Below, piece after piece: positions 36,110 to 64,000 of a DNA stretch of 64,000 nucleotides. Position 1 is the first letter of the stretch; every line of letters begins with the position of its first letter. The notes beneath the pieces were generated by a model, which ran no database searches, was not told where the DNA came from, and was given only the letters and a program-made list of their open reading frames with translations. This DNA is from an uncultured candidatus Brocadiaceae bacterium (GTDB lineage Bacteria; Planctomycetota; UBA11346): the NCBI GenBank assembly GCA_964652775.1, contig CAZZAM010000001.1, positions 128,023-192,022 on the forward strand. The letters run 5' to 3'. The position numbers were made by a program, and so were the translations under genes.

Positions 36110-36139
36110 GGATGCGGACGTTGCGACACGCCTGCTAGA

Positions 36140-36296
36140 TCCGGCGATGAGATCACATGGAGGAACGGAGGAACGGAGCAGGCATGGGCTTGGAGAATCA
36201 ACGGCATTCACCCAACATGTGATTGCTTTCTTCGCCGCGCATACCGTGCGACTCCGGTCCTCCGGTTCTCCATGTCGATCAGATGCTGCGTTTGGG
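36140..36296 (+). repeat. Hairpin repeat element, copy 3 (inside the pseudopilin operon)
   Basis: It aligns with the copies at 15227 and 29909. It occupies the 197-nt gap between the I-like and J-like pseudopilin genes, in the orientation opposite to transcription. Confidence 0.85.
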
Positions 36297-36306
36297 ATCA
36301 TGGAAC

Positions 36307-38330: not shown

Positions 38331-38333
38331 GAC

Positions 38334-44392: not shown

Positions 44393-47329
44393 ATGACCAC
44401 CTCAGATACTGACGACGAACAACTGCTTGCAGGCTGGCGAGCCGGTCAAGACGAGGTGGCACTCCAGACTCTCTACGCTCGTCATGCCCGACTGGTTGCC
44501 TCAACCTGCCGACGCTGCGGCTCCCCCGACGCTGATGAGGCAACGCAGGCCGTATTCATGGTGCTTATGCGGCGCTCTGGCTCAGTCCCCAACCGCTGCT
44601 TGGCTGGATGGCTGACCATTACTGCACGTCGTGTCGTTCATCATCAACACCGAGCTATTCAGCGTCGGCAACATCACGAACAGGAAGCAGCCATGAAACT
44701 CGCTTGTCAACCTCCGGAACTCGCTGAATCCTCATCCTGGGATGACGCTCGTCAGCACCTCGACGCCGCACTCGCCCAACTCAGCGCTGGCCGTCGCGAA
44801 GCCGTAGTACGCTACTTTCTCGAACAGAAGACCCAGTCAGTCGTAGCCACAGAACTTGGCTGTTCGACTGAGGCCGTGAAGACGCGCGTTCATGAAGGAT
44901 TGGAAAGTCTGCGTGCCTTTTTCACTCGCCGTGGTGTGCCCCTCAGCGTCGCCGCCATTTCCAGTGGTCTTGCTACCGAAATAGCTGCCGCCGAGCCGAA
45001 TCTCATGGCGACGTTCATCAATGTCTCAGCAACGCCAAGTTCCAACGCCTCAGCAACCATCCTCGCTCAGAAAGTTTGTAACGCCATGCTGCTCAACTCC
45101 ATCACCTGGACCGCTGCTGCCGTGATCGTCATCGGTTCAGGACTGACCGCCGCACTAGTCCTTGGTGCCGATACCCAACCGCCTCCGCCTCCAACTGTAA
45201 ATGCACAGCCCGAACTGGTCGAATTAACAAACTTCCGAAGTGGTATTTCACTAACCATCGATGGCCGCCTTGGTCGTGATTATGTCGTTGAACGACTCTT
45301 CCACGACGCCAAGGCCGATGACCACAGCGTCATCTATATGCGCAGTGGGACGAAAATGTCGCTGGCGCATAACGCCCTCAATGTCTACCAGGTCGATTCG
45401 AGCAGCCCCTTCAAGCAAGTGGGCATCAATGGTCCAGACGGCAAGCCCGACAGTGGCGACGAGGGAATCATCAATTTCAAAATTGACCGCGATCAGCAAA
45501 CGGGATCGAATTGGTCCGCTGGATATCAGGATCGCGGCAATACGAAATCCCAGCAATCTTGCCAAGCCTACGTGCATCCGTTCTCGCTTGCGGATTTAGA
45601 GTTTGAGCCTGGCAGCAAAGTTATTGGCAGTGTTGGCCTGCAGCCAGGCGCCGTTCCGGGACCCAACTTCTATTATCGTGGGCAACTCGACGCCTACGGC
45701 GATGAGTGGCACAGCCTGACGGTTGCCGACGACGACAGCTCATTTCAGGGTGCTCACTACACCCACAAGCATTCCAGTGACGGGAAGGTTTTTCTCTTCG
45801 TCGTCGATCCTAAAACGCCCTGTCTCAGTGTGCGTGCGCTTACCGACCAAGCACAATTTTACACCACGCCGGCAAAGACCTATTTTTTGCCGCGCATTCA
45901 TGAGCAGACCACGTACATTGCGAACGACGTCGAGTTGCAGCTACATAATCTTTGCAATGAGCGGACGATCTTTTACCGCATCGATCAAGGGGAGGCGCAG
46001 AACTACCAAGCACCACTGCGGAGCGAGAGCTTCTCCGATGGGGCTCATGTTCTCGAGTACTGGATCGACGGTGGACCGCACCGGACCCGTGCCGTGGTCA
46101 AAAACCCCGTCTCGCCCGGCGCCCAAGAAACGCATCCTCGGCTGCTGTGGGCTGATGACGCTGAACTCGCCACGATCCGTGCGCGACTTGGTCGAGAGCC
46201 ATATAAAACCATCTACGATGGAAGCCGAACGTCTGCGAAAGGTGCTGGGCACACGGCTATTGATGCGATCCTTGGGCGTGGCTCACGTAACTGGGTGAGT
46301 GCAGCGCTGGGCAACGCTTTCATTGCAAAAATCGAAGGCCCAGAGGCCAAAACGCCAACCGGAACCCGCACGTTCGCCAGCTATGCCAAACACGTACTGC
46401 TCGACAACAAACTGAGCTTCGATCCGGTCGGCATGGAGTTGAATCACAACTTTGCTCCGATGCCCACCGCCGAGTGGAATGCCTACGGCTATTACGTGGT
46501 GAATGAAGTGTACGATCTGGCCCTGGCCTACGACTTGCTGATCAGCTTCTATCGCGCCGACCAAGCGCCAGGCGGCATTACCCCAATCGAGGATCTGAAG
46601 ATACGCGATCTGCTAGCGCATTGGATCGCGATTCAGACGTACGAACTGCGTGGTTTTGAATCCGCGCCGTGGCCTCCGCGGGCAGATCCCGGCGTCGGGA
46701 TGTGGGATACCGCACGGTTGTCTGGCGCAGCTGTAGCCGCCATGGCCATGCCCGGCTACGACACGCCCTATTACGGCACCAGCGGTTTTGATGGAAAGAG
46801 TACGGCGAAGCACCAGGGCATTCCGTTCACTGGACAAGCGTTCACCTGGAAGGAACTGTTCATCGACGCCAACCAAGAGGTCGCAACGACGCCGCGCCTC
46901 TGCCGCCGATTCAACCAACTTGACGGCGGTCTTATTACCGCCAACGGACAGTTTTTTGATCGGCGTGATTATTTCGCGAATCCTCTCATGGGTCACTGTT
47001 TCCAGATCTTGGCGAACACCGCTGTCAGGACCTGTGGGAAACGCTGGCCTCTGCTTGAGCGCGCATTTGCACATGCAGCAGCCGGCCTGCTGGAAGGCGG
47101 AAAAGTTGCCGACGCATCAGACAAAGGGCCGGCCATGTTCGCCCTGCCATTGATCGTGAACCACCAGTTTCCCGCCATCGCAAACCTCATGCGCGACAAC
47201 ATAGACAAACAACCCGTCAATTACGACAACGGCAGGCGCAACGTTAACTCTCGTGGTTATATACTGTACACGGTCGGCGTGCTGGGCCTGATCTGGTACC
47301 AGGATGACATTGGGAAGGAACGGCCCTAA
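44393..47329 (+). CDS. ECF sigma factor fused via one TM helix to a large heparinase II/III- or alginate-lyase-like extracytoplasmic domain
   Basis: 978 aa. Region 2 is 'ATQAVFMVLMRR'. Region 4 is 'REAVVRYFLEQKTQSVVATELGCSTEAVKTRVHEGLESLRAFF'. The TM is 'ITWTAAAVIVIGSGLTAALVLG'. 'HPRLLWADDAELATIRARLGREPYK' is typical of the N-terminus of heparinase II/III-type lyase folds. Confidence 0.75.
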   Translation: MTTSDTDDEQLLAGWRAGQDEVALQTLYARHARLVASTCRRCGSPDADEATQAVFMVLMRRSGSVPNRCLAGWLTITARRVVHHQHRAIQRRQHHEQEAAMKLACQPPELAESSSWDDARQHLDAALAQLSAGRREAVVRYFLEQKTQSVVATELGCSTEAVKTRVHEGLESLRAFFTRRGVPLSVAAISSGLATEIAAAEPNLMATFINVSATPSSNASATILAQKVCNAMLLNSITWTAAAVIVIGSGLTAALVLGADTQPPPPPTVNAQPELVELTNFRSGISLTIDGRLGRDYVVERLFHDAKADDHSVIYMRSGTKMSLAHNALNVYQVDSSSPFKQVGINGPDGKPDSGDEGIINFKIDRDQQTGSNWSAGYQDRGNTKSQQSCQAYVHPFSLADLEFEPGSKVIGSVGLQPGAVPGPNFYYRGQLDAYGDEWHSLTVADDDSSFQGAHYTHKHSSDGKVFLFVVDPKTPCLSVRALTDQAQFYTTPAKTYFLPRIHEQTTYIANDVELQLHNLCNERTIFYRIDQGEAQNYQAPLRSESFSDGAHVLEYWIDGGPHRTRAVVKNPVSPGAQETHPRLLWADDAELATIRARLGREPYKTIYDGSRTSAKGAGHTAIDAILGRGSRNWVSAALGNAFIAKIEGPEAKTPTGTRTFASYAKHVLLDNKLSFDPVGMELNHNFAPMPTAEWNAYGYYVVNEVYDLALAYDLLISFYRADQAPGGITPIEDLKIRDLLAHWIAIQTYELRGFESAPWPPRADPGVGMWDTARLSGAAVAAMAMPGYDTPYYGTSGFDGKSTAKHQGIPFTGQAFTWKELFIDANQEVATTPRLCRRFNQLDGGLITANGQFFDRRDYFANPLMGHCFQILANTAVRTCGKRWPLLERAFAHAAAGLLEGGKVADASDKGPAMFALPLIVNHQFPAIANLMRDNIDKQPVNYDNGRRNVNSRGYILYTVGVLGLIWYQDDIGKERP

Positions 47330-50106: not shown

Positions 50107-52368
50107 CTAGAACGCGTCGAAGGAGATCATCTGCAGATCGACGCCAAAAGACGTAAGCATAGCCGTGCATGCCTCGATCATCTTCGGTGGTCCGCACAGA
50201 TAAAACTCAATCGCGCGCGGGTTGGCGTGTGTCGCCAGATATTTCTCACGCACGACCTCATGAATGAACCCAGTTGGACCATCCCAGGCATCCCCTTCCT
50301 GCGGTTCGCTGAGCGCGGGATGGAACGTGAAGTTGCGGTTACGAGCGGCGATCGCAGCAAAGTCCTCGTGATAGAATAATTCGCGGCGCGAACGCGCTCC
50401 GTACCAATAACTCACTCGACGCGCGGTTGGCTCCTGACCGAACAACTGCAATAGATGCGCACGAATCGGCGCCATGCCCGCGCCACCGCCGATGTAAACC
50501 ATCTCGCGCTGGGTCGGCTTGATGTGGAAATCACCGAAGGGACCAATGCCAGTCACCGTGTCGCCGGGCTTGAGGCTGAACACCCACGCTGAACCGACAC
50601 CCGGCGGGATGGTGCCTCCTGGTGGCGGCGTTGCGATGCGGATGTTGAAGCGCAGGCCGCGTTCATTGGGCCCACTGGCGATCGAATAATTATTGCGACG
50701 ACTCGTGCCATCGTGGCTGGCGGCTAACTCCAGCAAACCTTGTGCGCGCCAGGATGCCGCAAAAGGTTCAGGAATGATCAGGTCACGGAAAGCGATGCGC
50801 CCGTAATTCGGAATGTCGAGCTGCAGGTAATCACCCGGCGTAAATGCACAGGCACCGTCAAGCGGCTCTAACACCAACTCGGTGATGAACGTGGCGACCA
50901 AGCGATTGGAGACGACCCGGAAGCGCAACGTGCGTTGTTCACGCGCGCCAGCTCCACCGGCCGCCGCAACGTTCAACCACAGGGTGCCATCGCGGTTCTC
51001 AAGTTGGTAGGTTCGCAGCGCGCGACACACCGGCGCCCGCGCTGGCGATCCGTCGCTCAGTTCGAAGCGCCCGTTGTGCTTCGGACATTCGATCTGCCGA
51101 CCCTTCACTAAACCTTCAGCTAGGTGACTGTTACCGTGGGTACAGATGCCGTCCGTCGCGTGGTACGCGCCTTCATCGGTCAAATAGAGCGCATAGGTAC
51201 GCTTGCCATGATCGCAGCGGATGACCTGACCGCGCGCAAGTTGCGCTGCCGCACCGACGGCCAACCAACCCGCGTTATCGGGTATCCCGGAGACGGCATA
51301 CTGAGTCGGTGATGATCGCGACGGCGGCGTGGGCAGTTGACGATGCACGCACCAGGTTGGTTCACGTCGCTGACGCAGTAGCGCCGGAATGATCTCACGG
51401 AATGCGGCAACGATGCTTGGATAGGGCGTCGGCATGTCGGCCTTCACCGCGGCATGCAGTCTGGGGAGATTATGATACGGCACGAGGGGAAACATATGGT
51501 GCTCGACGTGATAATTCATATTCCAGTACAAGTAGCGGTGCAGCCAGTTCATGTACACCGTGCGGCAGTTGAGCCGGTGATCGAGCACGTCTTCAGCCAG
51601 GCCAGCGTGCTGCGTCAGACCGTACATCGGCATCAACCACGAACCATAGAGGTTCGGCAAACCAATGAACATGAGCGGCAAGATGCTGCCACTGACCAGA
51701 GCTGTTGCGATGACCGCCGCGTAAATCAACGCCGAGATCCGCGCCTTGAAGAAGACCTTGCCGTATTCGCTTTCGGGCACGTACATGCGCTCGTCCGGAT
51801 GCATGACGCCAACGCAATGCATGGCGAGGCGGGTGAAATACATCTTCATCGCCATGACGCCGAAGAAACTCAAGATGAGACCAGTGAAATCCGGCGGACG
51901 AGGCACCGCAATCTCAGGATCACGGCCGGTAATGATCGTGTCGCTGTGATGACGGGTGTGGCTCCAACGCCACGGCGTCGATTCGCGCATGACCATGAAC
52001 GAAGCGATCTCGTACAATACATTGTTCATCCAATCGGTCTTGAACGCCGTGCCGTGACTCGACTCATGCCAACGTGAGTCAGATGTCGTTCCGTAAATGA
52101 CGCCGTAGATCGCAAACGGAATAATCGCCCACCACGACGGCCACAACACATACCCAGCCCAACCGGAAACCCCCAGCAGCGTGAACCAGATCAGCGTATC
52201 GCGGATCGCCGGGCCATCGCGACGCTCAAGCAACCTGCGCATCTCATCACGCGGCACGTGGCAGGTGTACCAATCAGCTTCGGCAAGTCCGCGTTCGATC
52301 GCGCGGCGGGCATTGGCGTCGGAAAGACTGTAGTCGGTGACGGAAGCAGGGGCAGTGGCGGTAGTCAT
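50107..52368 (-). CDS. Three-domain fusion: membrane fatty-acid-desaturase-like di-iron domain, Rieske [2Fe-2S] domain, and NqrF-like FAD/NAD(P)H reductase
   Basis: The start is at the ATG at 52368 (MTTATAPAS). The His boxes are 'HESSH', 'HTRHH' and 'HVEHH'. The Rieske motif is 'CTHGNSH...CPKHNGRF'. The FNR module has 'RNNYSIAS' and 'GGGAGMAPIRAHL', and ends 'YLCGPPKMIEACTAMLTSFGVDLQMISFDAF', which closely resembles the NqrF C-terminus. Confidence 0.8.
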   Translation of the reverse strand: MTTATAPASVTDYSLSDANARRAIERGLAEADWYTCHVPRDEMRRLLERRDGPAIRDTLIWFTLLGVSGWAGYVLWPSWWAIIPFAIYGVIYGTTSDSRWHESSHGTAFKTDWMNNVLYEIASFMVMRESTPWRWSHTRHHSDTIITGRDPEIAVPRPPDFTGLILSFFGVMAMKMYFTRLAMHCVGVMHPDERMYVPESEYGKVFFKARISALIYAAVIATALVSGSILPLMFIGLPNLYGSWLMPMYGLTQHAGLAEDVLDHRLNCRTVYMNWLHRYLYWNMNYHVEHHMFPLVPYHNLPRLHAAVKADMPTPYPSIVAAFREIIPALLRQRREPTWCVHRQLPTPPSRSSPTQYAVSGIPDNAGWLAVGAAAQLARGQVIRCDHGKRTYALYLTDEGAYHATDGICTHGNSHLAEGLVKGRQIECPKHNGRFELSDGSPARAPVCRALRTYQLENRDGTLWLNVAAAGGAGAREQRTLRFRVVSNRLVATFITELVLEPLDGACAFTPGDYLQLDIPNYGRIAFRDLIIPEPFAASWRAQGLLELAASHDGTSRRNNYSIASGPNERGLRFNIRIATPPPGGTIPPGVGSAWVFSLKPGDTVTGIGPFGDFHIKPTQREMVYIGGGAGMAPIRAHLLQLFGQEPTARRVSYWYGARSRRELFYHEDFAAIAARNRNFTFHPALSEPQEGDAWDGPTGFIHEVVREKYLATHANPRAIEFYLCGPPKMIEACTAMLTSFGVDLQMISFDAF

Positions 52369-52378
52369 GGGGATTGGT

Positions 52379-53422
52379 TCAGGAAATCGTGAAACGGAAG
52401 ACGGTGCGTTGATGATAGGGACGTCCCGGACGAACCATGATATCACCGAGATCAGGCCGCGTACTGCCATCGGGATAGCGCTGCGATTCGAGGCAGAAAC
52501 CCGTGTGTTTACCATAAGCACGGCCAGATGGACCGACACAGGAACCATCAAGCATCACGCCGGAATAGAACTGCAAAGCTGGCTCGGTGCTGAGTACTTC
52601 CAACGTACGACCACTCTGCGGATCACGTGCCCAGGCAACCGGAATCGGAGCAGGATTCGGATCGCGCGCGATACAGTAGTTGTCGCCATGCTGTTGATCT
52701 AGATGAGGGATCACGTCGCCAAGCCGACGTGGTCGCCGTAGATCTGCTGGTGTCCCAGCAACAGGAACCAGCTTGCCGGATAAGGTCATCTCAGCACCCA
52801 GCGGCGGCACGCGTTGATCCGCTGCGATCGAGAGATGATGATCGTCAATGCGGCCTGAACCTTCGCCGGCAAGATTGAAATACGTGTGATTGGTGAGACT
52901 GAGTGGCGTTGGCCGATCACCGGTCGCAACATAATCGAGCGTCAGTGCACCAGTGTCATCAAGGCTATAGGTTACGACAACAGCAACGGTTCCAGGATAA
53001 CCCTCTTCGCCATGCGGGCTGGTATAGCTGAGTTGAACTGCATTGGTTGGACTCGTTCCGGGAACATCACTCATCGCCCAGAGCCGCTGATCGAAGCCAA
53101 CAACTCCACCGTGCAGATGGTTCTTACCGTTGTTGAGCGCGAGTTGAATTGCTGTGCCATCAACCAACAGTCGGCCAGCAGTAACCCGACCGGCGATTCG
53201 CCCGACGATGCAGCCGAAGTACGGATGCCGTTTGAGATAGGGCTCCAAGCGATCAAAGCCCAATGCCACCGAGGCCATGCGTCCAGCGCGATCGGGCATA
53301 CTGATGCGCGTGATCGTGCCGCCATAGGCGATGACGTCGACTTCGACGCCGCGTTGATTCTTGAGCGTACGAATGGGAACCGCACGTCCGTCGGGTAAGG
53401 TTCCGAAAATGCGCTCAGTCAT
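52379..53422 (-). CDS. galM: Aldose 1-epimerase (galactose mutarotase)
   Basis: The start is at the ATG at 53422 (MTERIFGTLPDGRAV). It contains 'VIAYGGTITRI', 'NNGKNHLHGG', 'TNHTYFNL' and 'FCLE'. Confidence 0.85.
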   Translation of the reverse strand: MTERIFGTLPDGRAVPIRTLKNQRGVEVDVIAYGGTITRISMPDRAGRMASVALGFDRLEPYLKRHPYFGCIVGRIAGRVTAGRLLVDGTAIQLALNNGKNHLHGGVVGFDQRLWAMSDVPGTSPTNAVQLSYTSPHGEEGYPGTVAVVVTYSLDDTGALTLDYVATGDRPTPLSLTNHTYFNLAGEGSGRIDDHHLSIAADQRVPPLGAEMTLSGKLVPVAGTPADLRRPRRLGDVIPHLDQQHGDNYCIARDPNPAPIPVAWARDPQSGRTLEVLSTEPALQFYSGVMLDGSCVGPSGRAYGKHTGFCLESQRYPDGSTRPDLGDIMVRPGRPYHQRTVFRFTIS

Positions 53423-53972: not shown

Positions 53973-54833
53973 ATGACCATCACGCCTGAGGGCTGCACCA
54001 TCGTCCAGCTTGCCGTCCCCTCCGCTGCGATGAACCGATCGATCCAGGCAACTGTGGTCTTGCCGCCTGCCTATCAATACGACGCATCACGACGCTTTCC
54101 GATCCTCTACGCGATGCACGGGACTGGCGCGCCACACAATTGCTGGAGCGAAATGATTCCTCTGCGCAAGGCACTAGCCGATCAGCCGATGATCGTCGCC
54201 ATGTTCGATGCCGACAACGCCTCGTGGTATCTCGACTCGCCACAGATTCAGACTAATTATCTGCGGCCGCCGCCAAAAGACGCGCCGGGACAACCCGCGC
54301 AACCGCCCATCCGTTCGCTGTTCACCACCTTCTTCTTCAACGAGTTCATCCCCTACGTTGATCAGCAATTCCGCACCAACTCCAAGCAACGTCTGCTGAC
54401 TGGATTCTCGATGGGTGGATTCGGCGCGTTCCACTATCTGTTGACCAAGCCGGACATGTTTATGTCGGTCAGTGCACTAAGTGGTGCGTTTATGAATTTG
54501 GCACAGCCGGCAAAGGAATTCATCGATCGACTAGCCACCCTGCTCGGCGACTACGACGTTGATCGATCTGGCTACCGTGCCATCGATCTGCAGATGCGCA
54601 TCATCGATCAAACGCTTAAAAACGTACGCCTACCACCGATATTTTTCCACTGCGGAAGCGAGGACGAAGTTCCGCGCTTACTGGAAAGCAATCGTGACTT
54701 CGCCCGATTCCTTGCCGCCATGAAGATCCCTGCCCGCTACTTGGAGACCGAAGGGAAGCACAACTGGCCATTCTGGCGTGACGCATCGGCCGGCATCATT
54801 GACTTCCACTGGCGAACTCTGCACCCACAGTGA
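53973..54833 (+). CDS. Esterase (CE1/esterase-D-like), paralogue 1, no signal peptide
   Basis: 'FPILYAMHGTGAPHNCW', 'GFSMGGFGAFHYLL' and 'GKHNWPFW'. Length is 286 aa. Confidence 0.85.
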   Translation: MTITPEGCTIVQLAVPSAAMNRSIQATVVLPPAYQYDASRRFPILYAMHGTGAPHNCWSEMIPLRKALADQPMIVAMFDADNASWYLDSPQIQTNYLRPPPKDAPGQPAQPPIRSLFTTFFFNEFIPYVDQQFRTNSKQRLLTGFSMGGFGAFHYLLTKPDMFMSVSALSGAFMNLAQPAKEFIDRLATLLGDYDVDRSGYRAIDLQMRIIDQTLKNVRLPPIFFHCGSEDEVPRLLESNRDFARFLAAMKIPARYLETEGKHNWPFWRDASAGIIDFHWRTLHPQ

Positions 54834-55837
54834 TTCGGACACCAGTATCAAGGGATCGCATGCGACGCTCGTTTCTACCAGTCTGCATTATTCTGTTCTG
54901 CTGGTGGTTCGCGGGCTGCGCGACAGATCGACCACCGATCACAAGCAAAGCGATCGCTGCAGTCACGCCCACTGCAGAAGGCTGCACCGTGATGCGTCTG
55001 TCCGTCCCGTCCGCTGCGATGGGCCGACCGGTACAGATCGTTGCGCTGTTGCCACCAACGTACCAGCAAGATCCCACCGCCCGCTTCCCAGTCCTGTATG
55101 CCCTGCATGGCTCCAGTGCCGCGTGTGATTGCTGGGCTGATATGGCTCCGCTGCGCGCCGCCTTGGTCAAGCAGCCGATGATCGTCCTGATGTTCGATGG
55201 CGACAGTGGATCAATGTACCTCGACTCGCCAATCCTGCAGACCGACTACCTGCGTCCACCGCCCAAGGGCTCCCCTACCCGTCCTGCTCCGCCGCCAGCA
55301 CGTTCGTTATTCACCACGTTTTTCTTCGACGAGCTCATCCCCAGCACCGATCTGCTGTTCCGCTCCCATCCGAAACAGCGTATGTTGACCGGTTTTTCGA
55401 TGGGCGGTTACGGCGCGTTCCACTATATGCTGTGCCGACCAGATGCATTTGTCTCGGTCAGCTCACTCAGTGGCGCATTCATGTCGATGGCACACCCATC
55501 CAAAGATACCAGCGAGTGGATGAGCGAACTTCTTGGTGATCCAAAAGTGAATCATGTGCGTTTCCGTGAAGTAGACATCGAGCTGCGCCTCATTGATGCT
55601 GTCATCAGGAAGATTCCGCTACCACCGATATTCCTCCATTGCGGATCAGATGACACTGGACTGGTCGAAGGCAATCGTGACTTCGCCCGCTTCCTCGCCG
55701 CCATGCGTGTTCCCTCACGCTACCTGGAAACACCCGGAGAGCACAATTGGAAGTTCTGGCGCGATGCATCACTTGGAATCATCGACTTTCATTGGCGTAC
55801 CCTGCATCCACAGTCTCAGTCTGCAGCAACCAAGTGA
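54830..55837 (+). CDS. Esterase (CE1/esterase-D-like), paralogue 2, lipoprotein
   Basis: ATGA overlap with paralogue 1. The lipobox is 'LFCWWFAG|C'. It contains 'FPVLYALHGSSAACDCW' and 'GFSMGGYGAFHYML'. Confidence 0.85.
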   Translation: MIRTPVSRDRMRRSFLPVCIILFCWWFAGCATDRPPITSKAIAAVTPTAEGCTVMRLSVPSAAMGRPVQIVALLPPTYQQDPTARFPVLYALHGSSAACDCWADMAPLRAALVKQPMIVLMFDGDSGSMYLDSPILQTDYLRPPPKGSPTRPAPPPARSLFTTFFFDELIPSTDLLFRSHPKQRMLTGFSMGGYGAFHYMLCRPDAFVSVSSLSGAFMSMAHPSKDTSEWMSELLGDPKVNHVRFREVDIELRLIDAVIRKIPLPPIFLHCGSDDTGLVEGNRDFARFLAAMRVPSRYLETPGEHNWKFWRDASLGIIDFHWRTLHPQSQSAATK

Positions 55838-55851
55838 TCCTGGATTCCATC

Positions 55852-56781
55852 ATGCATCGCATCCTGTTCTCCATCGCGACCATCATGCTCAGCTTCGTTT
55901 GCGGAGCCTGTGCAGCGCGACCAGTCGCTCAACCCAAACCGGCAGTCACGGTCACGCCCGAGGGATGTACGGTACGACGCTTCTCGGTTCCATCCGCTGC
56001 GATGGGGCGATCCATCGACGCGGTCGTTGTCTTGCCGCCAGCCTATGAGAAGGATCCGACGGCTCACTTCCCGATTCTCTACGCCCTCCACGGTCGCGGC
56101 GCTGCGTTTGATTGCTGGAGTGAGATGAAGCCGTTGTGCGCGGCGCTGGTCAAAAAGCCGATGATTGTCGCTTCGTTCGATGCCGACAATGCCTCATGGT
56201 ATCTTGATGCGCCGTTGCCGCAGACCAAATACCTGCGCCCCGGAGGCGACGCTGGGCCAAGTTCACCGCCAACCCGCTCGCAGTTCACCACCTTCTTTTT
56301 TGACGAATTCATTCCCTATATCGACCGTGAGTATCGCAGCGAACCCAAGCAACGCATGCTGACCGGATTCTCGATGGGCGGCTACGGTGCGTTCCACTAT
56401 CTACTCTCCAGGCCAGAGGCATTCGTTTCTATAAGCGCACTCAGTGGCGCCTTTCGCTCCATGACGCAGCCGAACAAAGCGCTGGTTCCGCTGATCGGCG
56501 AACATCCCCAGGAGAGCGTTCGCTATCGTGCGGTTGATCTCCAATTGCGACTCATCGATGCGGTCCTTAGGAAAGTCCCACTGCCGCCAATCTTTATTCA
56601 CTGCGGTACCGAGGACAGCGGACTGATCGAAAACAATCGCGACTTCGCGCGCTTTCTCACCGCACTGAACATCCCTGCTCGCTATCTGGAAACCGCTGGG
56701 GAACACAACTGGCCATTCTGGCGCGATGCTTCGCCTGGCATCGTCGACTTTCACTGGCGCTCGCTGCATCCCGTTCAATGA
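55852..56781 (+). CDS. Esterase (CE1/esterase-D-like), paralogue 3, lipoprotein
   Basis: ORF 55747..56781. The start is at the ATG at 55852 (MHRILFSIATIMLSFVCGA|C). It contains 'FPILYALHGRGAAFDCW' and 'GFSMGGYGAFHYLL'. Confidence 0.85.
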   Translation: MHRILFSIATIMLSFVCGACAARPVAQPKPAVTVTPEGCTVRRFSVPSAAMGRSIDAVVVLPPAYEKDPTAHFPILYALHGRGAAFDCWSEMKPLCAALVKKPMIVASFDADNASWYLDAPLPQTKYLRPGGDAGPSSPPTRSQFTTFFFDEFIPYIDREYRSEPKQRMLTGFSMGGYGAFHYLLSRPEAFVSISALSGAFRSMTQPNKALVPLIGEHPQESVRYRAVDLQLRLIDAVLRKVPLPPIFIHCGTEDSGLIENNRDFARFLTALNIPARYLETAGEHNWPFWRDASPGIVDFHWRSLHPVQ

Positions 56782-56784
56782 GCC

Positions 56785-57513
56785 ATGACCACCGTTCGCT
56801 CCATTCGTGCATTCACCATCAACGTCACCGCCGGAACGCGTTGCCTGGAGCATCGACATCCAGTCACCGAGATCGTGGTCAACTTCGGAGCTAGTGGTGT
56901 CCTGCATCAAGACGGCAAACGCCGAACCTATCGTGATGGTGACAGCTTCGTCTATCAACCCGGCAGCTCGCACTGGATTGAGACAACCAAATCCGGCGAA
57001 CAAGTGTGTTTGAATGTTGCTGGTTGTGGCGCTGAAGTCATTCCACCGGGCGTCTATACCTCGGCCAGTGTCGTCGAAGCCGCAAAACGCGTACGCGCAG
57101 CGTTGAGCGGCAGCATGATCCACCAGCAAGAACGCATTGATCTGTTGTCCGGTCTACTTGTGCTTTCCTTAGCCGAAACCATCAAGCCACCGTCCGGACT
57201 CGCTGAACGCGCCCAACATCTGCTCAACGAAGGCTTAGCTGATGGACGCGGCGTGAGTGAAGCCGCTCATGCCTTACGCATCAGCCCCGATCGTCTGCGG
57301 CAAGTATTTCGCAAAGCCTTCGGCATCAGTCCGCTGAACTACCTCATGCAACGCCGGCTCGATCGCGCCCGCGACCTACTGGCATCGTCCGGACTTCCCA
57401 TTCAGGAAATCGCTGAAACCTGCGGTATGCCCGATGCGTTTTATTTCGCGCGCTTCTTCCGCCGCGCTACTGGCGTCACACCAACTGCGTGGCGGCAGAC
57501 TCACGCTTCGTAA
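56785..57513 (+). CDS. AraC family transcriptional regulator (cupin N-domain)
   Basis: The C-terminal double HTH is 'LRQVFRKAFGISPLNYLMQRRLDRARDLLASSGLPIQEIAETCGMPDAFYFARFFRRATGVTPTAWRQ'. Confidence 0.9.
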   Translation: MTTVRSIRAFTINVTAGTRCLEHRHPVTEIVVNFGASGVLHQDGKRRTYRDGDSFVYQPGSSHWIETTKSGEQVCLNVAGCGAEVIPPGVYTSASVVEAAKRVRAALSGSMIHQQERIDLLSGLLVLSLAETIKPPSGLAERAQHLLNEGLADGRGVSEAAHALRISPDRLRQVFRKAFGISPLNYLMQRRLDRARDLLASSGLPIQEIAETCGMPDAFYFARFFRRATGVTPTAWRQTHAS

Positions 57514-58201
57514 CCACCGCTGTGCCGAATTCGACGTCCGCATCGCGGTAGATTCCAATCTTCGTCCAATCAGTCGGCGTGCCGACCGGGAACGCGCGCA
57601 TGTTGATCGATACGCGTTCACGACCGGATTGATTTGGCGTGACGCGGTGCCAGCACAATCCGCTCAGCAGCACCAGGGTTCCCGCGCGCGGCGTCAGCAC
57701 GACCTGACCGGGAATATCTTCCTGCGCTTCGTTCGCTGAAACGCGACCCCTCCGGTGACTGCCAGGAACGACGACAACTGCGCCGTCCTCGGGACGAACA
57801 TCGCTGGTATAAAAGAGGCGGTTGAGATTGAATCGGCCGCCATCAGCACGGCAGTCCTGATGCCATGCCTGACCACGACCGCCTGGCGCAGACCAGAACG
57901 TGATCGAGCTTTTCCCTTCCCAGCCCGCGCCAATCACTGCATCTGTCAATGTGTTCAATGCAGGATCTTGGTGCAGCGCAACGAAATCCGGGTCACCTTT
58001 GGACAATGGATCGCCACCAAAAACATCGCAAGCCGTGTCATAACCGCTGACGACCACCGGATGATTCGTATTCACCGGCTTGTGTCGAGCCAAAGCCTGA
58101 CGCATCACGTCGCAGCGAGTTAGGGAGAGAAAGTTTTCGATCACCACGTATCCGTCAGTGGCGAAGCGCGAGCGTAGGTCGGTGTAGGTCATGGTGGACA
58201 T
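57476..58201 (-). CDS. Phytanoyl-CoA dioxygenase (PhyH) family Fe(II)/2-oxoglutarate oxygenase
   Basis: 'FATDGYVVIENFLS', 'WHQD' (HxD) and 'LLSGLCWHRVTPNQSGRERVS'. The 3' end overlaps the AraC gene convergently by 38 nt. Confidence 0.65.
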   Translation of the reverse strand: MSTMTYTDLRSRFATDGYVVIENFLSLTRCDVMRQALARHKPVNTNHPVVVSGYDTACDVFGGDPLSKGDPDFVALHQDPALNTLTDAVIGAGWEGKSSITFWSAPGGRGQAWHQDCRADGGRFNLNRLFYTSDVRPEDGAVVVVPGSHRRGRVSANEAQEDIPGQVVLTPRAGTLVLLSGLCWHRVTPNQSGRERVSINMRAFPVGTPTDWTKIGIYRDADVEFGTAVVTKRESAATQLV

Positions 58202-58271: not shown

Positions 58272-60434
58272 TTATGGCGTGATCGGAACCTGTGCTGACA
58301 GTTCTTTCGCGTAGGCGTCCGCCTTGGGTCGCCAGGTCGTCCACATGACGTTCAGGAATTCGTTGCCCCAGCAGTACTCTACAAAGTTTTTGCCAATGCT
58401 GGGCACGCCCTGTTCTTTGACCCAGCGATCGACGTAGTCGAAGAATGGTGGATGTTTCCAGATGTCCTGCGCACCCATGAGTCGCGCCGCGAGGGCGGGA
58501 CCGATCCAGGTGACGCTGCAGATTTTGCGATAGCCGAAGCTCGGACCGTCGAGTTTGCCGTCCGGATCACGAATGTCTTTGTCGCCACTGGCAGTCATGC
58601 CCTTGGTCATGAGCTGATGGAAGATCACCTGTTGATTGCCCGCATCGTTGCCCCACAGCGGCTTGCCCTGCGGATATTCCGGCGTGGGCACCCCGTACCA
58701 CGTATGTGCATCCTCACCAAACTTGTCGACCGTGCCCGTACGCGAATTGGAGGATGCGACCAGCGCTGGTTGCTCCTGCATCGCTTGGTCATCAAGCATG
58801 ATTCCTGCAAACAGGATCGGCCAGCGACGAGCATTGCCGAAGCCGCCATATCCGCGCCACGCATCGCCGTTGTTCATGCTGATCGCATGTAGATCAATGC
58901 CAAGCTGAACCAGACGAACCGTCAGCGCCTCGCGCTCGGGAATATCTAACAGCACCATCATCGCCATCGTCGAAGCGTCATTGCCAAAATAATACGGCTG
59001 CATGTTCTCACGCGGATGCATCGTCGCGTTTGAGTTTCCCTTGATGGCAATGTGGTCCAACCACACGCGCTGCATCACGGTGCTGACATCGGGCAGGCGC
59101 ACGCCGCTCGGCGGTGGCAGCTTGGGCAGGCGCTTCCATTGCACCTGCGACTCGGTCTTGATCGGTTTATCGCCTGCCACATACGGTGGACGGAACGCGT
59201 CTGCCGGCGGAATCTTGTCGACTACGGTCAATACAGCAGCGGTTTCCAATCCTTCGTAAGCGCCACCGATGCGCGGCGATTCCATACCGATCGTGGACAC
59301 CAATGAACGCACGCCCTCCAGTCGCAATGGGAATGTTGCCCGCAATGTCTCGTCGTACTTGGGACTGAATTTCCACTCCTGACGATAGCCCTGTTTGGCA
59401 GACGGAACTGGATCGACCATGGATCCATGGCGCACACCATCCCACCCCGGACTCACCGCGTTAATCACCACCGGACCAAGCACCCAGTAATCGCCGTTCA
59501 CGAATTGGCCACTGGCAACTGGTTCAGCAAACGTCCAGGTGATGCCGTACTGCGTGATCGAGTCCGTCTTCGTTGCGACGACATGATTGACGGCAGCAAC
59601 TGGCGCCGGGAAGATCGCGCGATTCGGCACTGGCCGCTGATCTGCGCCACGCAGCACGAACGGCAGACAACACGCAATCCCAATGAGTCCGACAGCCACA
59701 CCCGCTGCAGCCGGGCGAGTAGACATGAACAACTGTATTTTCTGGATCACGGTGAGGCGAACAGTCGTCGTTGGCAGATTACCGCCAGCAGCCGACGCAG
59801 CGATGGAGCCTGCCGCCGCCACCACCTGTGGTGACGCCGCATAGGCCGGCTGCGCTGCGAGCAGACTAGCGATAACCGTTGTGGTGACCACCGCACCGCG
59901 CGCACCCAGCAGATCGCGCAACCGCGACCGCGCGCGTGAGAGTCGTTGCGACACCGTATTTTCACTCGCGCCGACAGCGGTGGCGACCTCAGCCTGGGAC
60001 AGACCAGCAAAATAATGCAGGTCGATGACTTCGCGATCGGCCTCGGGCAGGCGTGCCACCAGCGCGCGCACGTCCTCGGCGAGATCATTCGGTTGCGGGG
60101 TCGAACGCTGCAGCGTCATGGCTAATTCCTCTCGGCGTTGCCGCCGTCGATCACTGCGCCGCACCCGCAGACACGCGATCTGCACCAAGCGTCCAACCCA
60201 TGCGGCAAAGGGGACACTGCCGTCGAAGCGGCTGGCCGAGCGCGCGAGCTGGAGGAATGCCTCCTGCACCGCGTCATCAGCATCAGCCTGATTACCCAAA
60301 GCGCGTCGGGCCTGGGTGTACGCCTGATCAGCACAGGCGCGCAGGGCGCGATCCAATGCCGCAGTGTCACCACCTTGCGCGTAGGCGAGGTAGTCGGCAG
60401 CGCCGGGATGCGCGTCAACGACAGTTGGATCCAT
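58272..60434 (-). CDS. ECF sigma factor fused via a TM helix to an extracytoplasmic domain paralogous to the neighbouring lipoprotein
   Basis: 720 aa. Region 2 is 'DADDAVQEAFLQLARSASRFDG..FAAWVGRLVQIACLRVRR'. Region 4 is 'REVIDLHYFAGLSQAEVATAVGASENTVSQRLSRARSRLRDLL'. The TM is 'AAAGVAVGLIGIACCLPFVL'. The C-domain begins 'ITQYGITWTFAEPVASGQFVNGDYWVLGPV'. Confidence 0.8.
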   Translation of the reverse strand: MDPTVVDAHPGAADYLAYAQGGDTAALDRALRACADQAYTQARRALGNQADADDAVQEAFLQLARSASRFDGSVPFAAWVGRLVQIACLRVRRSDRRRQRREELAMTLQRSTPQPNDLAEDVRALVARLPEADREVIDLHYFAGLSQAEVATAVGASENTVSQRLSRARSRLRDLLGARGAVVTTTVIASLLAAQPAYAASPQVVAAAGSIAASAAGGNLPTTTVRLTVIQKIQLFMSTRPAAAGVAVGLIGIACCLPFVLRGADQRPVPNRAIFPAPVAAVNHVVATKTDSITQYGITWTFAEPVASGQFVNGDYWVLGPVVINAVSPGWDGVRHGSMVDPVPSAKQGYRQEWKFSPKYDETLRATFPLRLEGVRSLVSTIGMESPRIGGAYEGLETAAVLTVVDKIPPADAFRPPYVAGDKPIKTESQVQWKRLPKLPPPSGVRLPDVSTVMQRVWLDHIAIKGNSNATMHPRENMQPYYFGNDASTMAMMVLLDIPEREALTVRLVQLGIDLHAISMNNGDAWRGYGGFGNARRWPILFAGIMLDDQAMQEQPALVASSNSRTGTVDKFGEDAHTWYGVPTPEYPQGKPLWGNDAGNQQVIFHQLMTKGMTASGDKDIRDPDGKLDGPSFGYRKICSVTWIGPALAARLMGAQDIWKHPPFFDYVDRWVKEQGVPSIGKNFVEYCWGNEFLNVMWTTWRPKADAYAKELSAQVPITP

Positions 60435-60506
60435 GTTGCTACCCTTTACTTCCCGCCGCTAACCCGGACCTGACATGGAAGTTAGGGGCCAGAAATGCCA
60501 CGGTCC

Positions 60507-60522
60507 AGAAGTCCGGACTTCT
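60507..60522. other. Perfect 16-bp palindrome AGAAGTCCGGACTTCT
   Basis: It is its own reverse complement. It lies 4 nt downstream of the lipoprotein stop (60527) and 73 nt upstream of the sigma-fusion ATG (60434). It carries the same GTCCGGAC core as the octamer arrays. Confidence 0.8.
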
Positions 60523-60526
60523 CCCA

Positions 60527-62200
60527 TTAGCGCGTGGGCCGATCGTCTGCCGGCTGTGCCGGTTTCCCGCCGACCACCGTGCTGCGGTAGGTTTCCCACA
60601 TCGCACGCTGGAAGGCCCCGCTGAAAATGTGCTGGGTCTTCTCCTGATCCTTCCAGTCGGCTTCTTTCATGGCCCACGCCACGTAGCGATCCGTATAGAC
60701 GAACAACGCGTCATGCTTCCAGTTCGCCTGCTGCCCCATCAGCAAAGCAGGCAGGATCAATCCGGGATACGACATGCCGTTGATCGTGCGGTAGAGGTGA
60801 TGAAGAAAGTTGTTCAATGTCTTTGGCCCATCCAAACCCGGCGCGAATCCACCAACGTTCCACTCAGCCATGCCAATGTCTGCCGGCTCATAAGGAACCA
60901 ATTTCTTAGAGCGTTTATCTGGTGCCCAGGCCGCGGAATGGGTCATGTCCACCGCCGCTTGGTCGATGAAACTCGTCTGCCCATCCTCAGCGAATCCCCA
61001 ATACGGCATGTCCTTTGAACGGCTACCGATCGTCTGCATGTGCTGGTTATCGAGCATCAATCCGGCAAAAATTATCGGCCATTTGCGCCCGTGATTCAAA
61101 CCACCCTTGCCCCACCAAAAGCCACCGTTGTCGGCGATGTACGACAGATCAATCCCCAGTTGGACGAAACGGATCAGCAACGCGTCTTTGTTTTGTCCCT
61201 GCTTGGCGATGAGGTCTTCCTCCTTGAGCATCAGCATGAGGGCCGCCTCGCCAACAGCGGCACACCATTCGCGCCCATAGTTGGGCATATTCTCGGACGG
61301 ACTCGCGTACTGCGTGCCATCACCGAGATGACTGAAGTGGTCAATCCACGGGCGTTGGAATTTACTTACCAGTGACTCGAGTTTGGGCATCGGCGTGACC
61401 AGCGGCAGATTCGGGAGCAAATCCTTGCGCAACGACTTGACCGAATACAGCGGCTTGTCGCTGCCACTATATGGCGGTCGAAACGACGTCGCGCCCAGAT
61501 CCGGCGGAACGCTGGCCAACACGGTAAGGACGGCCGCCGAACGCAACTGCGGTCGCCCGCCCATCTCGTGACTGATGGTCGATACCAGTGAAGATGACGC
61601 CGACAACTCCAACGGATGACTCGCACTGACGCCCAGTGCGACGTTTTTGGACGGATCGAAGCGCGCTGGATACATCCGGCCACTGATCGGATGCCAACGA
61701 TAGATGTCTGAATCGTAACCCTGCTGTCCACCAGCAACCGGCATCGGATTCAGCATGGAACCATGCATCATCCGCGGTTGGGGATCGCTGCCACCGAGCG
61801 TAAAACCCTTCAGCGTCGTGGTGCCAATCAGCTCAGCGGACGGCGGGTTAATGGTGATGATCTTCACCGGACCAACCACCCAATAGTCACCATTGGCGAA
61901 CTGACCACTCGGCACTGGCGCAGCAAAAGTCCAGGTGATGCCGTACTGCGTCACCTGGGAAACCATCGGCGCCTGTGCCGAGGACGAGGTCGCCGGAGTC
62001 GTTGTTGGAACAACTGGCGCAGGAACCACAGGTGGAACTGGTGCCGCTGGTGTGGGTGCAGGCGCAGGCGCAGGCGCTGGGGCCGTCGTTACCGGAGTCG
62101 CTGAGGGAGCAGGCGTTGGTGCCTGTGGTTTCTCGTTGCAACTCAGGAGTGCAACCCCGAGACAGCCAAGGAATAGTTTCGCGAGATTCATTTCAGACAT
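60527..62200 (-). CDS. Lipoprotein of unknown family (free paralogue of the sigma-fusion C-domain)
   Basis: 557 aa with the lipobox 'GVALLS|C' and a long A/P/T linker. 'VTQYGITWTFAAPVPSGQFANGDYWVVGPV', 'HGSMLNP', 'FRPPYSGSDKP', 'FVQLGIDL' and 'GRKWPIIFAGLMLDNQHMQ' all have counterparts in 58272..60434. Confidence 0.75.
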   Translation of the reverse strand: MSEMNLAKLFLGCLGVALLSCNEKPQAPTPAPSATPVTTAPAPAPAPAPTPAAPVPPVVPAPVVPTTTPATSSSAQAPMVSQVTQYGITWTFAAPVPSGQFANGDYWVVGPVKIITINPPSAELIGTTTLKGFTLGGSDPQPRMMHGSMLNPMPVAGGQQGYDSDIYRWHPISGRMYPARFDPSKNVALGVSASHPLELSASSSLVSTISHEMGGRPQLRSAAVLTVLASVPPDLGATSFRPPYSGSDKPLYSVKSLRKDLLPNLPLVTPMPKLESLVSKFQRPWIDHFSHLGDGTQYASPSENMPNYGREWCAAVGEAALMLMLKEEDLIAKQGQNKDALLIRFVQLGIDLSYIADNGGFWWGKGGLNHGRKWPIIFAGLMLDNQHMQTIGSRSKDMPYWGFAEDGQTSFIDQAAVDMTHSAAWAPDKRSKKLVPYEPADIGMAEWNVGGFAPGLDGPKTLNNFLHHLYRTINGMSYPGLILPALLMGQQANWKHDALFVYTDRYVAWAMKEADWKDQEKTQHIFSGAFQRAMWETYRSTVVGGKPAQPADDRPTR

Positions 62201-62290: not shown

Positions 62291-64000
62291 TTAGAAACTG
62301 CCCAGCGCAGCACCGATATCCATGGGATTCACCGGCGCCAAAGCGGTGAAGTCAAAATCGGGGAAGACGTCGCGCGGATAGAACGCGGCGACGTCCTTGC
62401 CCGCGCCATGCGCCGGACCGTCTGGCCGTAGCGTATAATCGAGCGCAGCGGGATCCTTGAACAACGTCGTCTGGTCTTTGACCACCAACTCCGTTTCGCC
62501 CAACTTCCAACCATAGCGATCGGCCTGAAATGTTCCAAGCGAGGTAAAGATATTGTGGCTGCGTCCGATGCGCTCGGGGGCCTTATGGTTGAATGCCCCA
62601 CCATCAATGATGTTGTTCATGACGATGTATTCCTTCTTGGCATCGCCGCCGATGCTGAGCGACGCACCAACCGTGGCTCGCGCCATCGTATTATTCAGAA
62701 ACACAATCTTGCCCGTCGCCCATGGACCACGACTCGTATTCGGCCATTCGTTGACGTTCTTGTTATTGCCAACGCCATCGGTGACGTTGTTGATGAACCA
62801 TAGATTGCCGCTGTCTTGGAACGTGATCGGGGTCTGCGCCTCGGTGATCAGATTGCCGACCACCAAGATATTTTCGCAAGCGATGTAGAGCGTCAGGCCA
62901 TTGGCATGCGTGGCATAGATATTGGTGATGACATTGCCAATGATCTGAACGCGCCGCCCATGATAGACCGGCAATCCTGTGCCGCCGGAGAACTCGATGC
63001 GATTCTTGCGCACGACGGCGTCCTCGACATCGGACAGAAAAATGCCGCGGTTGCCGATGTTCCAGGCAACGTGGTTGCCCTCGACCAACGCCTTCCGGGT
63101 ATGGGCCAGATGGATCCCGCCATACCCGTTTTCGTCGCTCGCGTTATGGGTGACGACATTATTGCGGACGACAATCCCGGTGCTGGGCTTTGTCGCGTCA
63201 GCGTTCGCGCAGATGCCGGTGCCTTCCAACATGCCAGTGCCACTGAATTTCCTGACCACGAAGCCATCGATCTCGACATAGCTCTGCGTGCCGAGATCGA
63301 ATCCACGCATGCGATGCGAAGCCGAAATCCGCTCGTCAAGCCGCTCAGCGTTCCGCGGCCACAACAGCAGTCGACGCTTGCCGTCAGCAGCCGGACCGCT
63401 GAGAAAAAACTCGCCCGGCGTATCGATCGCATGCGGACTGTTCTTGATCGCAAAAAACTGATCACGCTTGTCATCGTAGATCGCGCCTTTCCCGAGATCC
63501 TTAAATACAATCCGATGTTCGCCGGGAACAAACGCATCAATCTCGCGGATGCGGATGCGATTGTCGTTCACCCACATCAACGCGAGGGCATCCTTAAACG
63601 AGTTCTCTGCGTTCTGCTGCAGATGCTCGGGCGATACAATCGACGTCAGCGTGATGTTGTCGTGCTTCACTGGAAAAAACGAATCCGTCCGGTTGTAGAA
63701 GAAGAAGTCCTTGGGATTCGGATCCTGCGCCGGCCACAGGAATTCGTCGGCTTGCATAGCCGGGTTAAACTCATGGAGATTGATCCGAAACGGAGAGTCC
63801 GCCGCGACCATCGCGGTAAAAATCTCGGAAAATCGCGGACTCCCATAGGCCTCTTCCGGACTGGCGCAACGCTTCCAGCCGGTTACCGGATCCGACCCAT
63901 CAAGTATCGCACGACCGTCGCCCCACCCGGTGCCCTTATAGATGATGCGCGCTGTCGCCGTGCCGCTGGCCGGAACACGAATGCTGCCGCGATACACCAC
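62291..64000 (-). CDS. Right-handed parallel beta-helix repeat protein (N-terminus beyond window)
   Basis: At least 569 aa with repeated rungs 'VVRNNVVTHN', 'VEGNHVAWN', 'VRKNRIEF', 'IIGNVITN', 'VVGNLITE', 'FINNVTDG', 'FLNNTMA' and 'VMNNIIDG'. This indicates a pectate-lyase/polysaccharide-lyase-type fold. Confidence 0.75.
   Translation of the reverse strand: MVYRGSIRVPASGTATARIIYKGTGWGDGRAILDGSDPVTGWKRCASPEEAYGSPRFSEIFTAMVAADSPFRINLHEFNPAMQADEFLWPAQDPNPKDFFFYNRTDSFFPVKHDNITLTSIVSPEHLQQNAENSFKDALALMWVNDNRIRIREIDAFVPGEHRIVFKDLGKGAIYDDKRDQFFAIKNSPHAIDTPGEFFLSGPAADGKRRLLLWPRNAERLDERISASHRMRGFDLGTQSYVEIDGFVVRKFSGTGMLEGTGICANADATKPSTGIVVRNNVVTHNASDENGYGGIHLAHTRKALVEGNHVAWNIGNRGIFLSDVEDAVVRKNRIEFSGGTGLPVYHGRRVQIIGNVITNIYATHANGLTLYIACENILVVGNLITEAQTPITFQDSGNLWFINNVTDGVGNNKNVNEWPNTSRGPWATGKIVFLNNTMARATVGASLSIGGDAKKEYIVMNNIIDGGAFNHKAPERIGRSHNIFTSLGTFQADRYGWKLGETELVVKDQTTLFKDPAALDYTLRPDGPAHGAGKDVAAFYPRDVFPDFDFTALAPVNPMDIGAALGSF

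Follow-up and report, generated by a model that had tools for sequence, protein, structure and literature searches.

The gene at 58272..60434, on the minus strand of a 64,000-nucleotide stretch of DNA from an uncultured candidatus Brocadiaceae bacterium of the Planctomycetota (the window), encodes a 720-aa fusion of an extracytoplasmic function (ECF) sigma factor, a linker, a transmembrane (TM) helix and a large outer domain. The best explanation for this protein, to which we give a probability of about 0.6, is a membrane-tethered ECF sigma factor with a captured domain, released by proteolysis in response to a periplasmic glycan cue. The sigma-linker-TM part can be regarded as shown, or at the least strongly supported, to be a portable cassette, found in numerous proteins whose outside domains are unrelated.

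Architecture of the fusion protein

The fusion gene and its parts are as follows.

58272..60434 (-): whole fusion gene, 720 aa (open reading frame (ORF) list; exact match to MEK7412979.1)
60141..60338 (-): sigma region 2, residues 33-98 (PF04542, 8.4e-11; TIGR02937, 3.8e-27)
59919..60077 (-): sigma region 4, residues 120-172 (PF08281, 1e-14; PF04545, 2.4e-12)
59712..59894 (-): conserved cytoplasmic linker, residues 181-241 (profile match, ω, alignment with the relative P0121)
59655..59711 (-): single TM helix, residues 242-260 (hydropathy, AF2 model, cassette-family alignment)
58293..59576 (-): extracytoplasmic domain, residues ~287-714 (AF2 model, family profile)

A preliminary description of the window had read this ORF as ECF regions 2 and 4, a TM helix and a large domain, and we confirm both that composition and its coordinates and strand. 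An identical protein, MEK7412979.1 from a Planctomycetota metagenome-assembled genome (MAG), is annotated as 'sigma-70 family RNA polymerase sigma factor'. The N-terminus passes the ECF hidden Markov models of Pfam and TIGR02937, a check that had been fixed beforehand. Sigma70_ECF matches residues 16-174 in Pfam, where PF04542, PF08281, PF04545 and PF07638 each exceed the gathering cut-off, and the NCBIfam model TIGR02937 reaches 94.9 bits against a cut-off of 42.9, with positions 2-164 of its 165 covered. Neither Sigma70_r1 nor Sigma70_r3 of Pfam matches the fusion at E<=0.1, an absence of σ1 and σ3 as in ECF (group 4) sigma factors, and solved ECF sigmas are the fold match of the modelled sigma half. 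The N-terminal half of the fusion is an intact ECF (group 4) sigma factor.

The only strongly hydrophobic segment of the protein lies at residues 242-260, where the 19-residue Kyte-Doolittle mean rises to 2.4 (residues 181-200 are weakly hydrophobic), and it is modelled by AF2 as a helix across residues 241-261; the fusion has this one TM helix, followed by ~460 residues. Between region 4 and the membrane, the linker carries the motifs LLAAQPAYAA...LPTTT...QK..LFMSTRP, in which the conserved motifs are LLAAQPAYAA, LPxTT and FMSxHP. Its translation contains no Cys and no His, and AF2 predicts helices at residues 185-193 and 202-215 (pLDDT 77-82), with disorder at 220-226. Within it lies an in-frame methionine codon (Met237, 59724..59726), whose counterpart in the alignment is the start codon of P0002, a 481-aa free-standing protein that is 69% identical to the fused domain and its closest relative.

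A portable sigma-linker-TM cassette

An exhaustive HMMER search with residues 1-262 of the fusion returned 85 representative clusters at E<=1e-30, most of them 400-1300 aa long, in which the alignment extends through the linker and the TM helix (positions ~250-261). These relatives are 42-66% identical over residues 1-262 and differ in their ectodomains, of which they bear many different, unrelated kinds. When the window protein was left out in building a linker+TM profile, this profile still matched the window fusion at 3e-18, while ~200 other free-standing members of the outer-domain family score E>0.5 against the same profile. A metagenome scan with the cassette alignment yielded ordinary ECFs at 25-39% identity, with 3 loci alone extending past σ4; its patterns were too generic.

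The relative P0121 shows most clearly how far the shared unit reaches. It is 63% identical to fusion residues 1-262 over 99% of their length, beyond which its C-terminal part is unrelated; the two linkers are ~60% identical, and conservation of linker and TM helix is about equal to that of the sigma core. Purifying selection acts on the linker, with an ω against P0121 of 0.19 (0.12 in the sigma core) and different codons in the fusion and P0121 for 20 of the 35 identical linker residues.

P0121 (399 aa; L002 1470..2768, on a 7177-bp contig) is overlapped by the next gene, which lies in another frame and encodes 670 aa without a Pfam match. The long relatives P0196-P0198 hold both the P0121 part and the next-gene part in a single protein, so P0121 probably represents a ~1000-aa fusion that has been split or frameshifted. 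The ectodomain seen most often among the cassette relatives P0195-P0240 is uncharacterised and large (~700-800 aa); it has conserved stretches such as 'LLPF(L/I)DP…KPTSLL.DP', and its C-terminus is very often …DF, …GF or …NF; this ending may be a sorting or processing signal.

The possible frameshift in P0121, like the metagenomic origin of the window itself, could suggest that a stop codon was lost or a frame shifted in assembly or sequencing, and that two genes have been joined by error. Such an artefact is extremely improbable, however, and is rejected on the conservation of and selection on the linker: an identical, truncated copy in the same reading frame (P0001) is present in a separate Logan assembly, and the junction is a conserved, selected sequence common to dozens of long relatives.

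The comparison with P0002 bears on both the reality and the age of the fusion. The N-terminus of P0002, MSTHPLAAAARAGLFGLACLVPAL, aligns with the internal MSTRPAAAGVAVGLIGIACCLPFVL at Met237 of the window ORF, and the MST(R/H)P motif and hydrophobic segment that follow Met237 align exactly with the annotated N-terminus of P0002. On its contig (L001; GCA_043749425.1, contig JAYVDL010000461.1) there is no sigma gene upstream and no synteny with the window. This is the pattern that read-through of a sigma gene into the gene behind it would give; the recurrence of the unit, the constraint on it and a remnant upstream of P0002 argue against it. Accidental read-through is rejected on the conservation of the linker and the selection acting on it. 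The remnant, …AGTLPTTPTMSVSPRGLLLMSTHP…, stands in frame at L001 1556..1849, upstream of the P0002 start, and its in-frame translation is matched by the linker+TM profile at 1.7e-6; it is seen by the protein profile, a global DNA alignment of the window linker with the leader upstream of P0002 being uninformative. Because P0002 retains this linker remnant without a sigma factor, the fusion is older than the split of the two organisms, and from its sequence P0002 looks like the descendant of a fused ancestor whose sigma half was lost secondarily.

The exact alignment of the Met237 region with the N-terminus of P0002, which evidently functions from that start, also lends itself to another reading. 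Here, one frame would give two products, with an internal start at Met237 producing a ~484-aa secreted or anchored protein as in P0002, and the locus would in the main amount to a sigma gene plus an enzyme gene. We consider this improbable. The sigma part contains no stop codon, so that the full-length protein is made in any case, and at the Met237 position methionine has a frequency of ~0.4 in the cassette family, which makes it a motif residue and not a conserved start. The lack of a Shine-Dalgarno-like sequence ahead of Met237 counts against it only weakly, as Planctomycetes often do without one.

Two distantly related copies of one domain

The genes upstream of the fusion gene, in the same orientation, have the following features.

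60527..62200 (-): lipoprotein-like paralogue, 557 aa (ORF; BLASTP against the fusion)
62138..62200 (-): lipoprotein signal and lipobox, residues 1-21 (read from the translation)
61973..62137 (-): lipoprotein Pro/Ala/Thr-rich tether, residues 22-76 (read from the translation)
60584..61972 (-): lipoprotein shared domain, residues 77-539 (BLASTP)
62291..64000 (-): right-handed β-helix protein, partial, running past the window end (PF13229, 1.2e-14; NosD, 1.2e-9)

Read by eye, the N-terminus of the lipoprotein, MSEMNLAKLFLGCLGVALLSCN, comprises a hydrophobic stretch followed by a lipobox-like L18-L19-S20-C21, which agrees with L-x-[GAS]-C, and by ~55 Pro/Ala/Thr-rich residues. The preliminary description had proposed that this protein bears the same domain as the fusion, and the similarity proves to be a full-length domain alignment that goes beyond short motifs: BLASTP pairs fusion residues 287-702 with lipoprotein residues 77-539 over ~478 aa, with 165/478 identities (35%), 206 bits and E=1e-62. 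No third copy was found in the window by tblastn. A β-helix gene, also as described, precedes both (62291..64000, upstream of the lipoprotein and fusion genes).

The step from shared domain to duplicated copy does not hold. The fused domain is 60-69% identical to the best free-standing secreted proteins elsewhere, with many relatives at 50-69%, and when 204 members of the family are ranked against the fused copy, the adjacent lipoprotein comes 194th. In the other direction, the fused copy ranks 73rd of 204 for the lipoprotein, the best relatives of which reach 38-45% identity. Of the 109 positions that are at least 85% conserved in an alignment seeded from the fused copy, 106 are retained in the fused copy, with conservative changes at the other three, and 88 in the lipoprotein, where residues corresponding to H473, R651, D666 and E674, among others, are no longer kept. 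Between the fused ectodomain and P0002, ω is 0.07. Judged by sequence, the fused copy is a canonical family member, the lipoprotein belongs to a divergent subfamily, and the two are ancient paralogues with no local duplication between them.

The pairing of cassette and domain is a singleton. No sigma-fused domain was found in 81 domain-encoding loci (80 from a scan of species-representative genomes, plus L001); an ECF sigma lies within 10 kb in 3 of them and tandem copies of the domain occur in 2. Among the 120 best matches of the domain, sigma Pfams occur in the self-match alone, and none of 149 cassette relatives carries the window's domain. A junction-spanning protein search recovered no second fusion, and its power was low, as it missed the cluster of the window protein too. 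The simplest reading is that the cassette joined one of two family members that already stood side by side in a glycan cluster, and the adjacency of the paralogues is then most simply explained as a side effect of the cassette's landing place.

These results bear directly on the model first put forward, in which the neighbouring enzyme gene was locally duplicated and the copy became coupled to a sigma factor, forming a conserved and undescribed self-sensing module. The domains are indeed homologous over their full length, and the genes are adjacent, in the same orientation and behind a β-helix gene. Nevertheless, the two copies fall in different subfamilies with the distant ranks given above, the fused copy has orthologue-like relatives elsewhere, the arrangement recurs in none of the domain loci or cassette relatives, and comparable designs are present in the literature, all of which leaves this model very improbable. 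A self-contained, conserved design is also at odds with the second sigma fusion of the window, which has no paralogous partner.

This second fusion, at 44393..47329 (+), encodes 978 aa comprising σ2/σ4, an Ala/Ser-rich linker, a TM helix and a ~700-aa ectodomain without a Pfam match, of which no paralogue was found anywhere in the window. Its linker is absent from the matches of the first cassette's linker profile. Since it belongs to a different cassette lineage, it supports the general architecture alone. A FecR-domain gene is located nearby at 42718..43713 (-), a different locus from that of the 58272..60434 fusion.

A widespread domain family close to glycan-degradation genes

The shared domain had been described as impossible to assign to a family by eye, and database and structure searches bear this out. 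It has no match in Pfam or NCBIfam and none in the PDB by sequence or profile. AF2, given an 87-sequence alignment, models it with a pLDDT of 93.6 and a pTM of 0.94, with a β-sandwich at the N-terminus and a helical domain after it. Foldseek found no significant PDB fold match for this model (best E=0.28, TM<=0.23), with (α/α)-toroid glycan enzymes (PL5, PL17, trehalase, GH95) appearing at noise level.

The family profile spans fusion residues 280-714. The family comprises at least 1340 clusters, mostly of free-standing homologues, with at least 553 loci in species-representative genomes, and ranges over Planctomycetota, Myxococcota, Bacteroidota, Chloroflexota, Verrucomicrobiota, Spirochaetes and others. 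When the genes around 80 of these loci were clustered and the clusters annotated with Pfam, the recurrent neighbours were heparinase II/III-like proteins, PL8 lyases, β-helix proteins of the alginate-lyase/chondroitinase-B kind, a GH29 fucosidase, sulfatases and GFO/IDH oxidoreductases. Each companion family occurs in at most 6 of the 80 loci, for which reason this context is merely suggestive. One family member, P0008, has SASA, PIG-L and, two genes off, a Pel9A-like β-helix protein as its Pfam neighbours. The β-helix protein of the window itself had no homologue in the 80 loci by phmmer, a single-sequence search that is too insensitive for β-helices; neighbour clustering did find β-helix lyases near some family members.

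From this gene context it is a reasonable inference that the shared domain degrades or binds acidic or sulfated polysaccharides. The cluster holding both copies likewise looks glycan-related. The sequence of the 62291..64000 product supports a β-helix, for which a lyase activity would be at most putative; its best PDB sequence match is a mannuronan C5-epimerase (E=0.048). The family of the shared domain is large, is modelled with confidence, lacks a Pfam entry and a solved relative, and recurs alongside sulfatase and polysaccharide-lyase genes; on these grounds it may reasonably be put forward as a candidate new carbohydrate-active family.

Proposed mechanism and competing readings

The origin of this protein is strongly supported, and a way in which it might work can be proposed. 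In this lineage the cassette joined a pre-existing secreted member of a large, uncharacterised protein family, within a glycan-degradation cluster in which that member had a β-helix protein and a distant lipoprotein paralogue as neighbours. As the mobile unit includes the linker and the TM helix, the captured protein would stay outside the membrane. The cytoplasmic sigma factor would then be held at the inner membrane by a ~60-residue linker and one TM helix, with a ~440-residue domain presumably displayed on the periplasmic side. The tether, perhaps together with a clamp formed by the two short linker helices, would keep the sigma factor from free RNA polymerase (RNAP). A periplasmic cue, for which the most plausible candidate is a poly- or oligosaccharide of the type that the adjacent β-helix protein and lipoprotein deal with, would act on the outside domain and lead to cleavage outside the membrane and then within it, a course of regulated intramembrane proteolysis comparable to that of IutY and of classical anti-sigma factors. 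The freed sigma factor would activate its target genes, probably including its own cluster. Sensing of 'the enzyme's own substrate', as suggested in the preliminary description, is possible within this scheme.

The AF2 model lends weak support to inhibition by the tether. It places the two short linker helices after σ4 and gives σ2/σ4 a compact arrangement, and there is no sequence match to known anti-sigma domains; the sigma conformation has a TM-score of 0.74-0.77 to the CnrH/CnrY and SigW/RsiW anti-sigma complexes, versus 0.35-0.39 to RNAP-bound sigmas. This support is weak because the method may default to the compact state.

Several observations count against the proposed mechanism. Pfam and NCBIfam searches found no recognisable anti-sigma domain, zinc finger or FecR in the linker, with no match to zf-HC2 or RskA in the fusion as a whole, and a tether by itself may not inhibit a sigma factor. 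The compact AF2 shape may merely mirror the training data of the method. No ECF-type promoter common to the cluster genes was found, and no bipartite ECF-type promoter was common to the regions upstream of both fused sigmas, the lipoprotein gene and P0121. Finally, the pairing of cassette and domain is a singleton, and given that the closest lineage has also lost its sigma half, the fusion may be dispensable.

A fortuitous, neutral fusion would account for much of this. The cassette would simply have landed upstream of a secreted-enzyme gene, leaving a domain that works while anchored and a sigma factor that is inactive or constitutive, with no sensing involved. Insertions of this kind have been called fortuitous by Pinto et al. 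(PMC7671368), and the singleton pairing, the lack of an anti-sigma domain detectable in Pfam or NCBIfam, the fully canonical nature of the fused domain and the loss of the sigma half in the P0002 lineage, which retained the domain with a signal-anchor, are all as this explanation would have it. It is nonetheless doubtful, although a more serious contender than the others considered here. Comparison with P0121 shows purifying selection on sigma core and linker alike, the fusion has lasted through 31% amino-acid divergence from P0002, and large ectodomains have been retained in at least 85 representative clusters, a retention that argues for the tethered architecture being in use.

We therefore retain the tethered, proteolytically released sigma factor as the preferred reading. 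A broader version of it can be offered only tentatively, and we would not expect it to prove correct in full. In this version the cassette is a plug-in device that turns any fused periplasmic protein into the sensing head of a proteolytically released sigma factor; here, a member of an acidic- or sulfated-glycan family would read the substrate or products of its neighbours and switch on the cluster.

Relation to known systems

The design had been thought undescribed, a view that the literature contradicts: captured extensions of planctomycetal sigma factors (PMC7671368), TM-fused ECFs (PMC8999054) and the RsgI/SigI systems, in which the RsgI sensors are similar to modules of enzymes (PMC10328401, PMC6852018), have all been described. 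The closest precedent is the work of Pinto, Liu and Mascher (2020), who reported planctomycetal ECF clusters with conserved σ2/σ4 and unrelated C-terminal extensions of multiple origins, explained these by a duplicated sigma factor inserting next to or into other genes, and found non-sigma homologues for 159 of 205 extensions (PMC7671368). The window fusion comes from the same phylum, has relatives with a common σ2/σ4 but unrelated extensions, and bears an extension with non-sigma homologues in related organisms, in this case P0002 at 69% identity. It differs in that the duplicated unit extends beyond σ2-σ4 to include a conserved ~60-aa linker and a TM helix, a feature that we did not find in the text of PMC7671368, where 'transmembrane' appears once and in another context. 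The fusion fits a planctomycetal ECF sigma factor with a captured, membrane-separated C-terminal domain, acquired by a process that has already been described (PMC7671368).

IutY of Pseudomonas putida (ECF243) combines a sigma and an anti-sigma factor in one chain, which proteolysis by Prc and RseP activates (PMC8999054). In IutY, as in the window protein, an ECF sigma stands at the N-terminus and is joined through a membrane-spanning segment to a periplasmic portion; unlike the window protein, IutY contains a FecR-type anti-sigma and is partnered by a TonB-dependent receptor, whereas the window protein has no FecR match in Pfam or NCBIfam and no such receptor next to it. A second comparison is provided by ECF48, ECF52 and ECF53, which also join an ECF sigma to one or more TM helices and a long extracytoplasmic extension. 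Activation by proteolysis has been predicted for all three, and the extension of the ECF52 protein SCO4117 of Streptomyces coelicolor ends in a carbohydrate-binding domain (PMC8999054, PMC5826349). These groups are actinobacterial, their ectodomains are different, and they carry a zinc finger (ZAS, HxxxCxxC) between σ4 and the TM helix, in contrast to the window linker, which is without Cys or His.

The proposed sensing logic most resembles that of SigI/RsgI in Clostridium thermocellum, in which a carbohydrate-recognising module acts through a membrane helix and RseP proteolysis on a sigma factor for polysaccharide-degrading enzymes (PMC10328401, PMC12203970, PMC6852018). That system, however, consists of two separate proteins (σI and the anti-σI RsgI) in place of a fusion, RsgI has an autoproteolytic periplasmic domain, and the hosts are Firmicutes and not Planctomycetota; the sigma factor is of the σI type there, while here ECF models match and no σI is present among the best NCBIfam matches listed. 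ECF control of glycan-utilisation clusters is also known from ECF240 (formerly ECF10), linked to the polysaccharide utilisation loci of Bacteroidetes (PMC7826278, PMC7671368). The association of an ECF sigma with a glycan-utilisation cluster is common to both cases, but ECF240 works with separate FecR-like anti-sigmas and SusC-like transducers, and the window cluster has neither. As one defining feature of each fails, the window protein is not a member of the IutY, ECF52 or SigI/RsgI families; by analogy, it may work like them.

As evidence for a new regulatory design, the finding is weaker than it first appeared. What remains of interest is the portable sigma-linker-TM cassette, together with a widespread, uncharacterised domain family near glycan clusters. 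To our knowledge, ECF signalling in Planctomycetota is abundant and almost unstudied. If glycan-dependent release of the sigma factor proves true, the fusion would represent a compact, one-protein sensor-regulator for polysaccharide use in this phylum, and the linker-TM cassette would explain how these bacteria obtain new sensors through gene capture.

Cluster layout and other features of the window

The fusion gene is one of four minus-strand genes separated by short gaps, which encode the β-helix protein, the lipoprotein-like protein, the sigma fusion and a PhyH-type dioxygenase. Two further features belong to this cluster.

57476..58201 (-): PhyH-type 2-oxoglutarate (2OG)/Fe(II) dioxygenase (PF05721, 3.4e-15)
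60449..60472 (-): leader motif CAGGTCC-N4-TAGCGGCGGGAAG, also upstream of P0121 in L002

The dioxygenase gene begins 70 nt downstream of the fusion gene in the same orientation and may be co-transcribed with it; a gene of the AraC family is convergent with it. The intergenic gaps of the cluster contain no terminator-like sites, all matches lying inside ORFs at a count typical of shuffled sequence, and a scan for σ70 promoters likewise gave no excess over shuffled sequence. The leader motif CAGGTCC-N4-TAGCGGCGGGAAG is located 15-38 nt 5' of the sigma start codon and occurs once in the window, versus 0 expected occurrences; it could be a promoter, an operator or a translation signal. In the 92-nt gap ahead of the sigma gene, 5-20 nt past the lipoprotein stop codon, there is also a perfect 16-nt palindrome, AGAAGTCCGGACTTCT, at 60507..60522, which is not a typical terminator because no T-run follows it.

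Genes for glycan degradation are abundant in the window. A GH9 cellulase-like gene lies at 25039..27603, and three PF00756 'putative esterase' paralogues stand in tandem at 53973..56781 (+), where they abut or overlap one another; a fourth copy is at 29088..29867 (+). Prepilin-type N-terminal methylation motifs (PF07963) mark a series of genes that occupies 35096..40211 (-) and is followed, at 31287..35099 (-), by a gene for a 1270-aa protein with a weak E1_FCCH match, for which no further annotation was found. Finally, in an 814-aa protein encoded at 50107..52551 (-), a fatty-acid desaturase is fused to a Rieske [2Fe-2S] domain and to an NAD-binding oxidoreductase domain.

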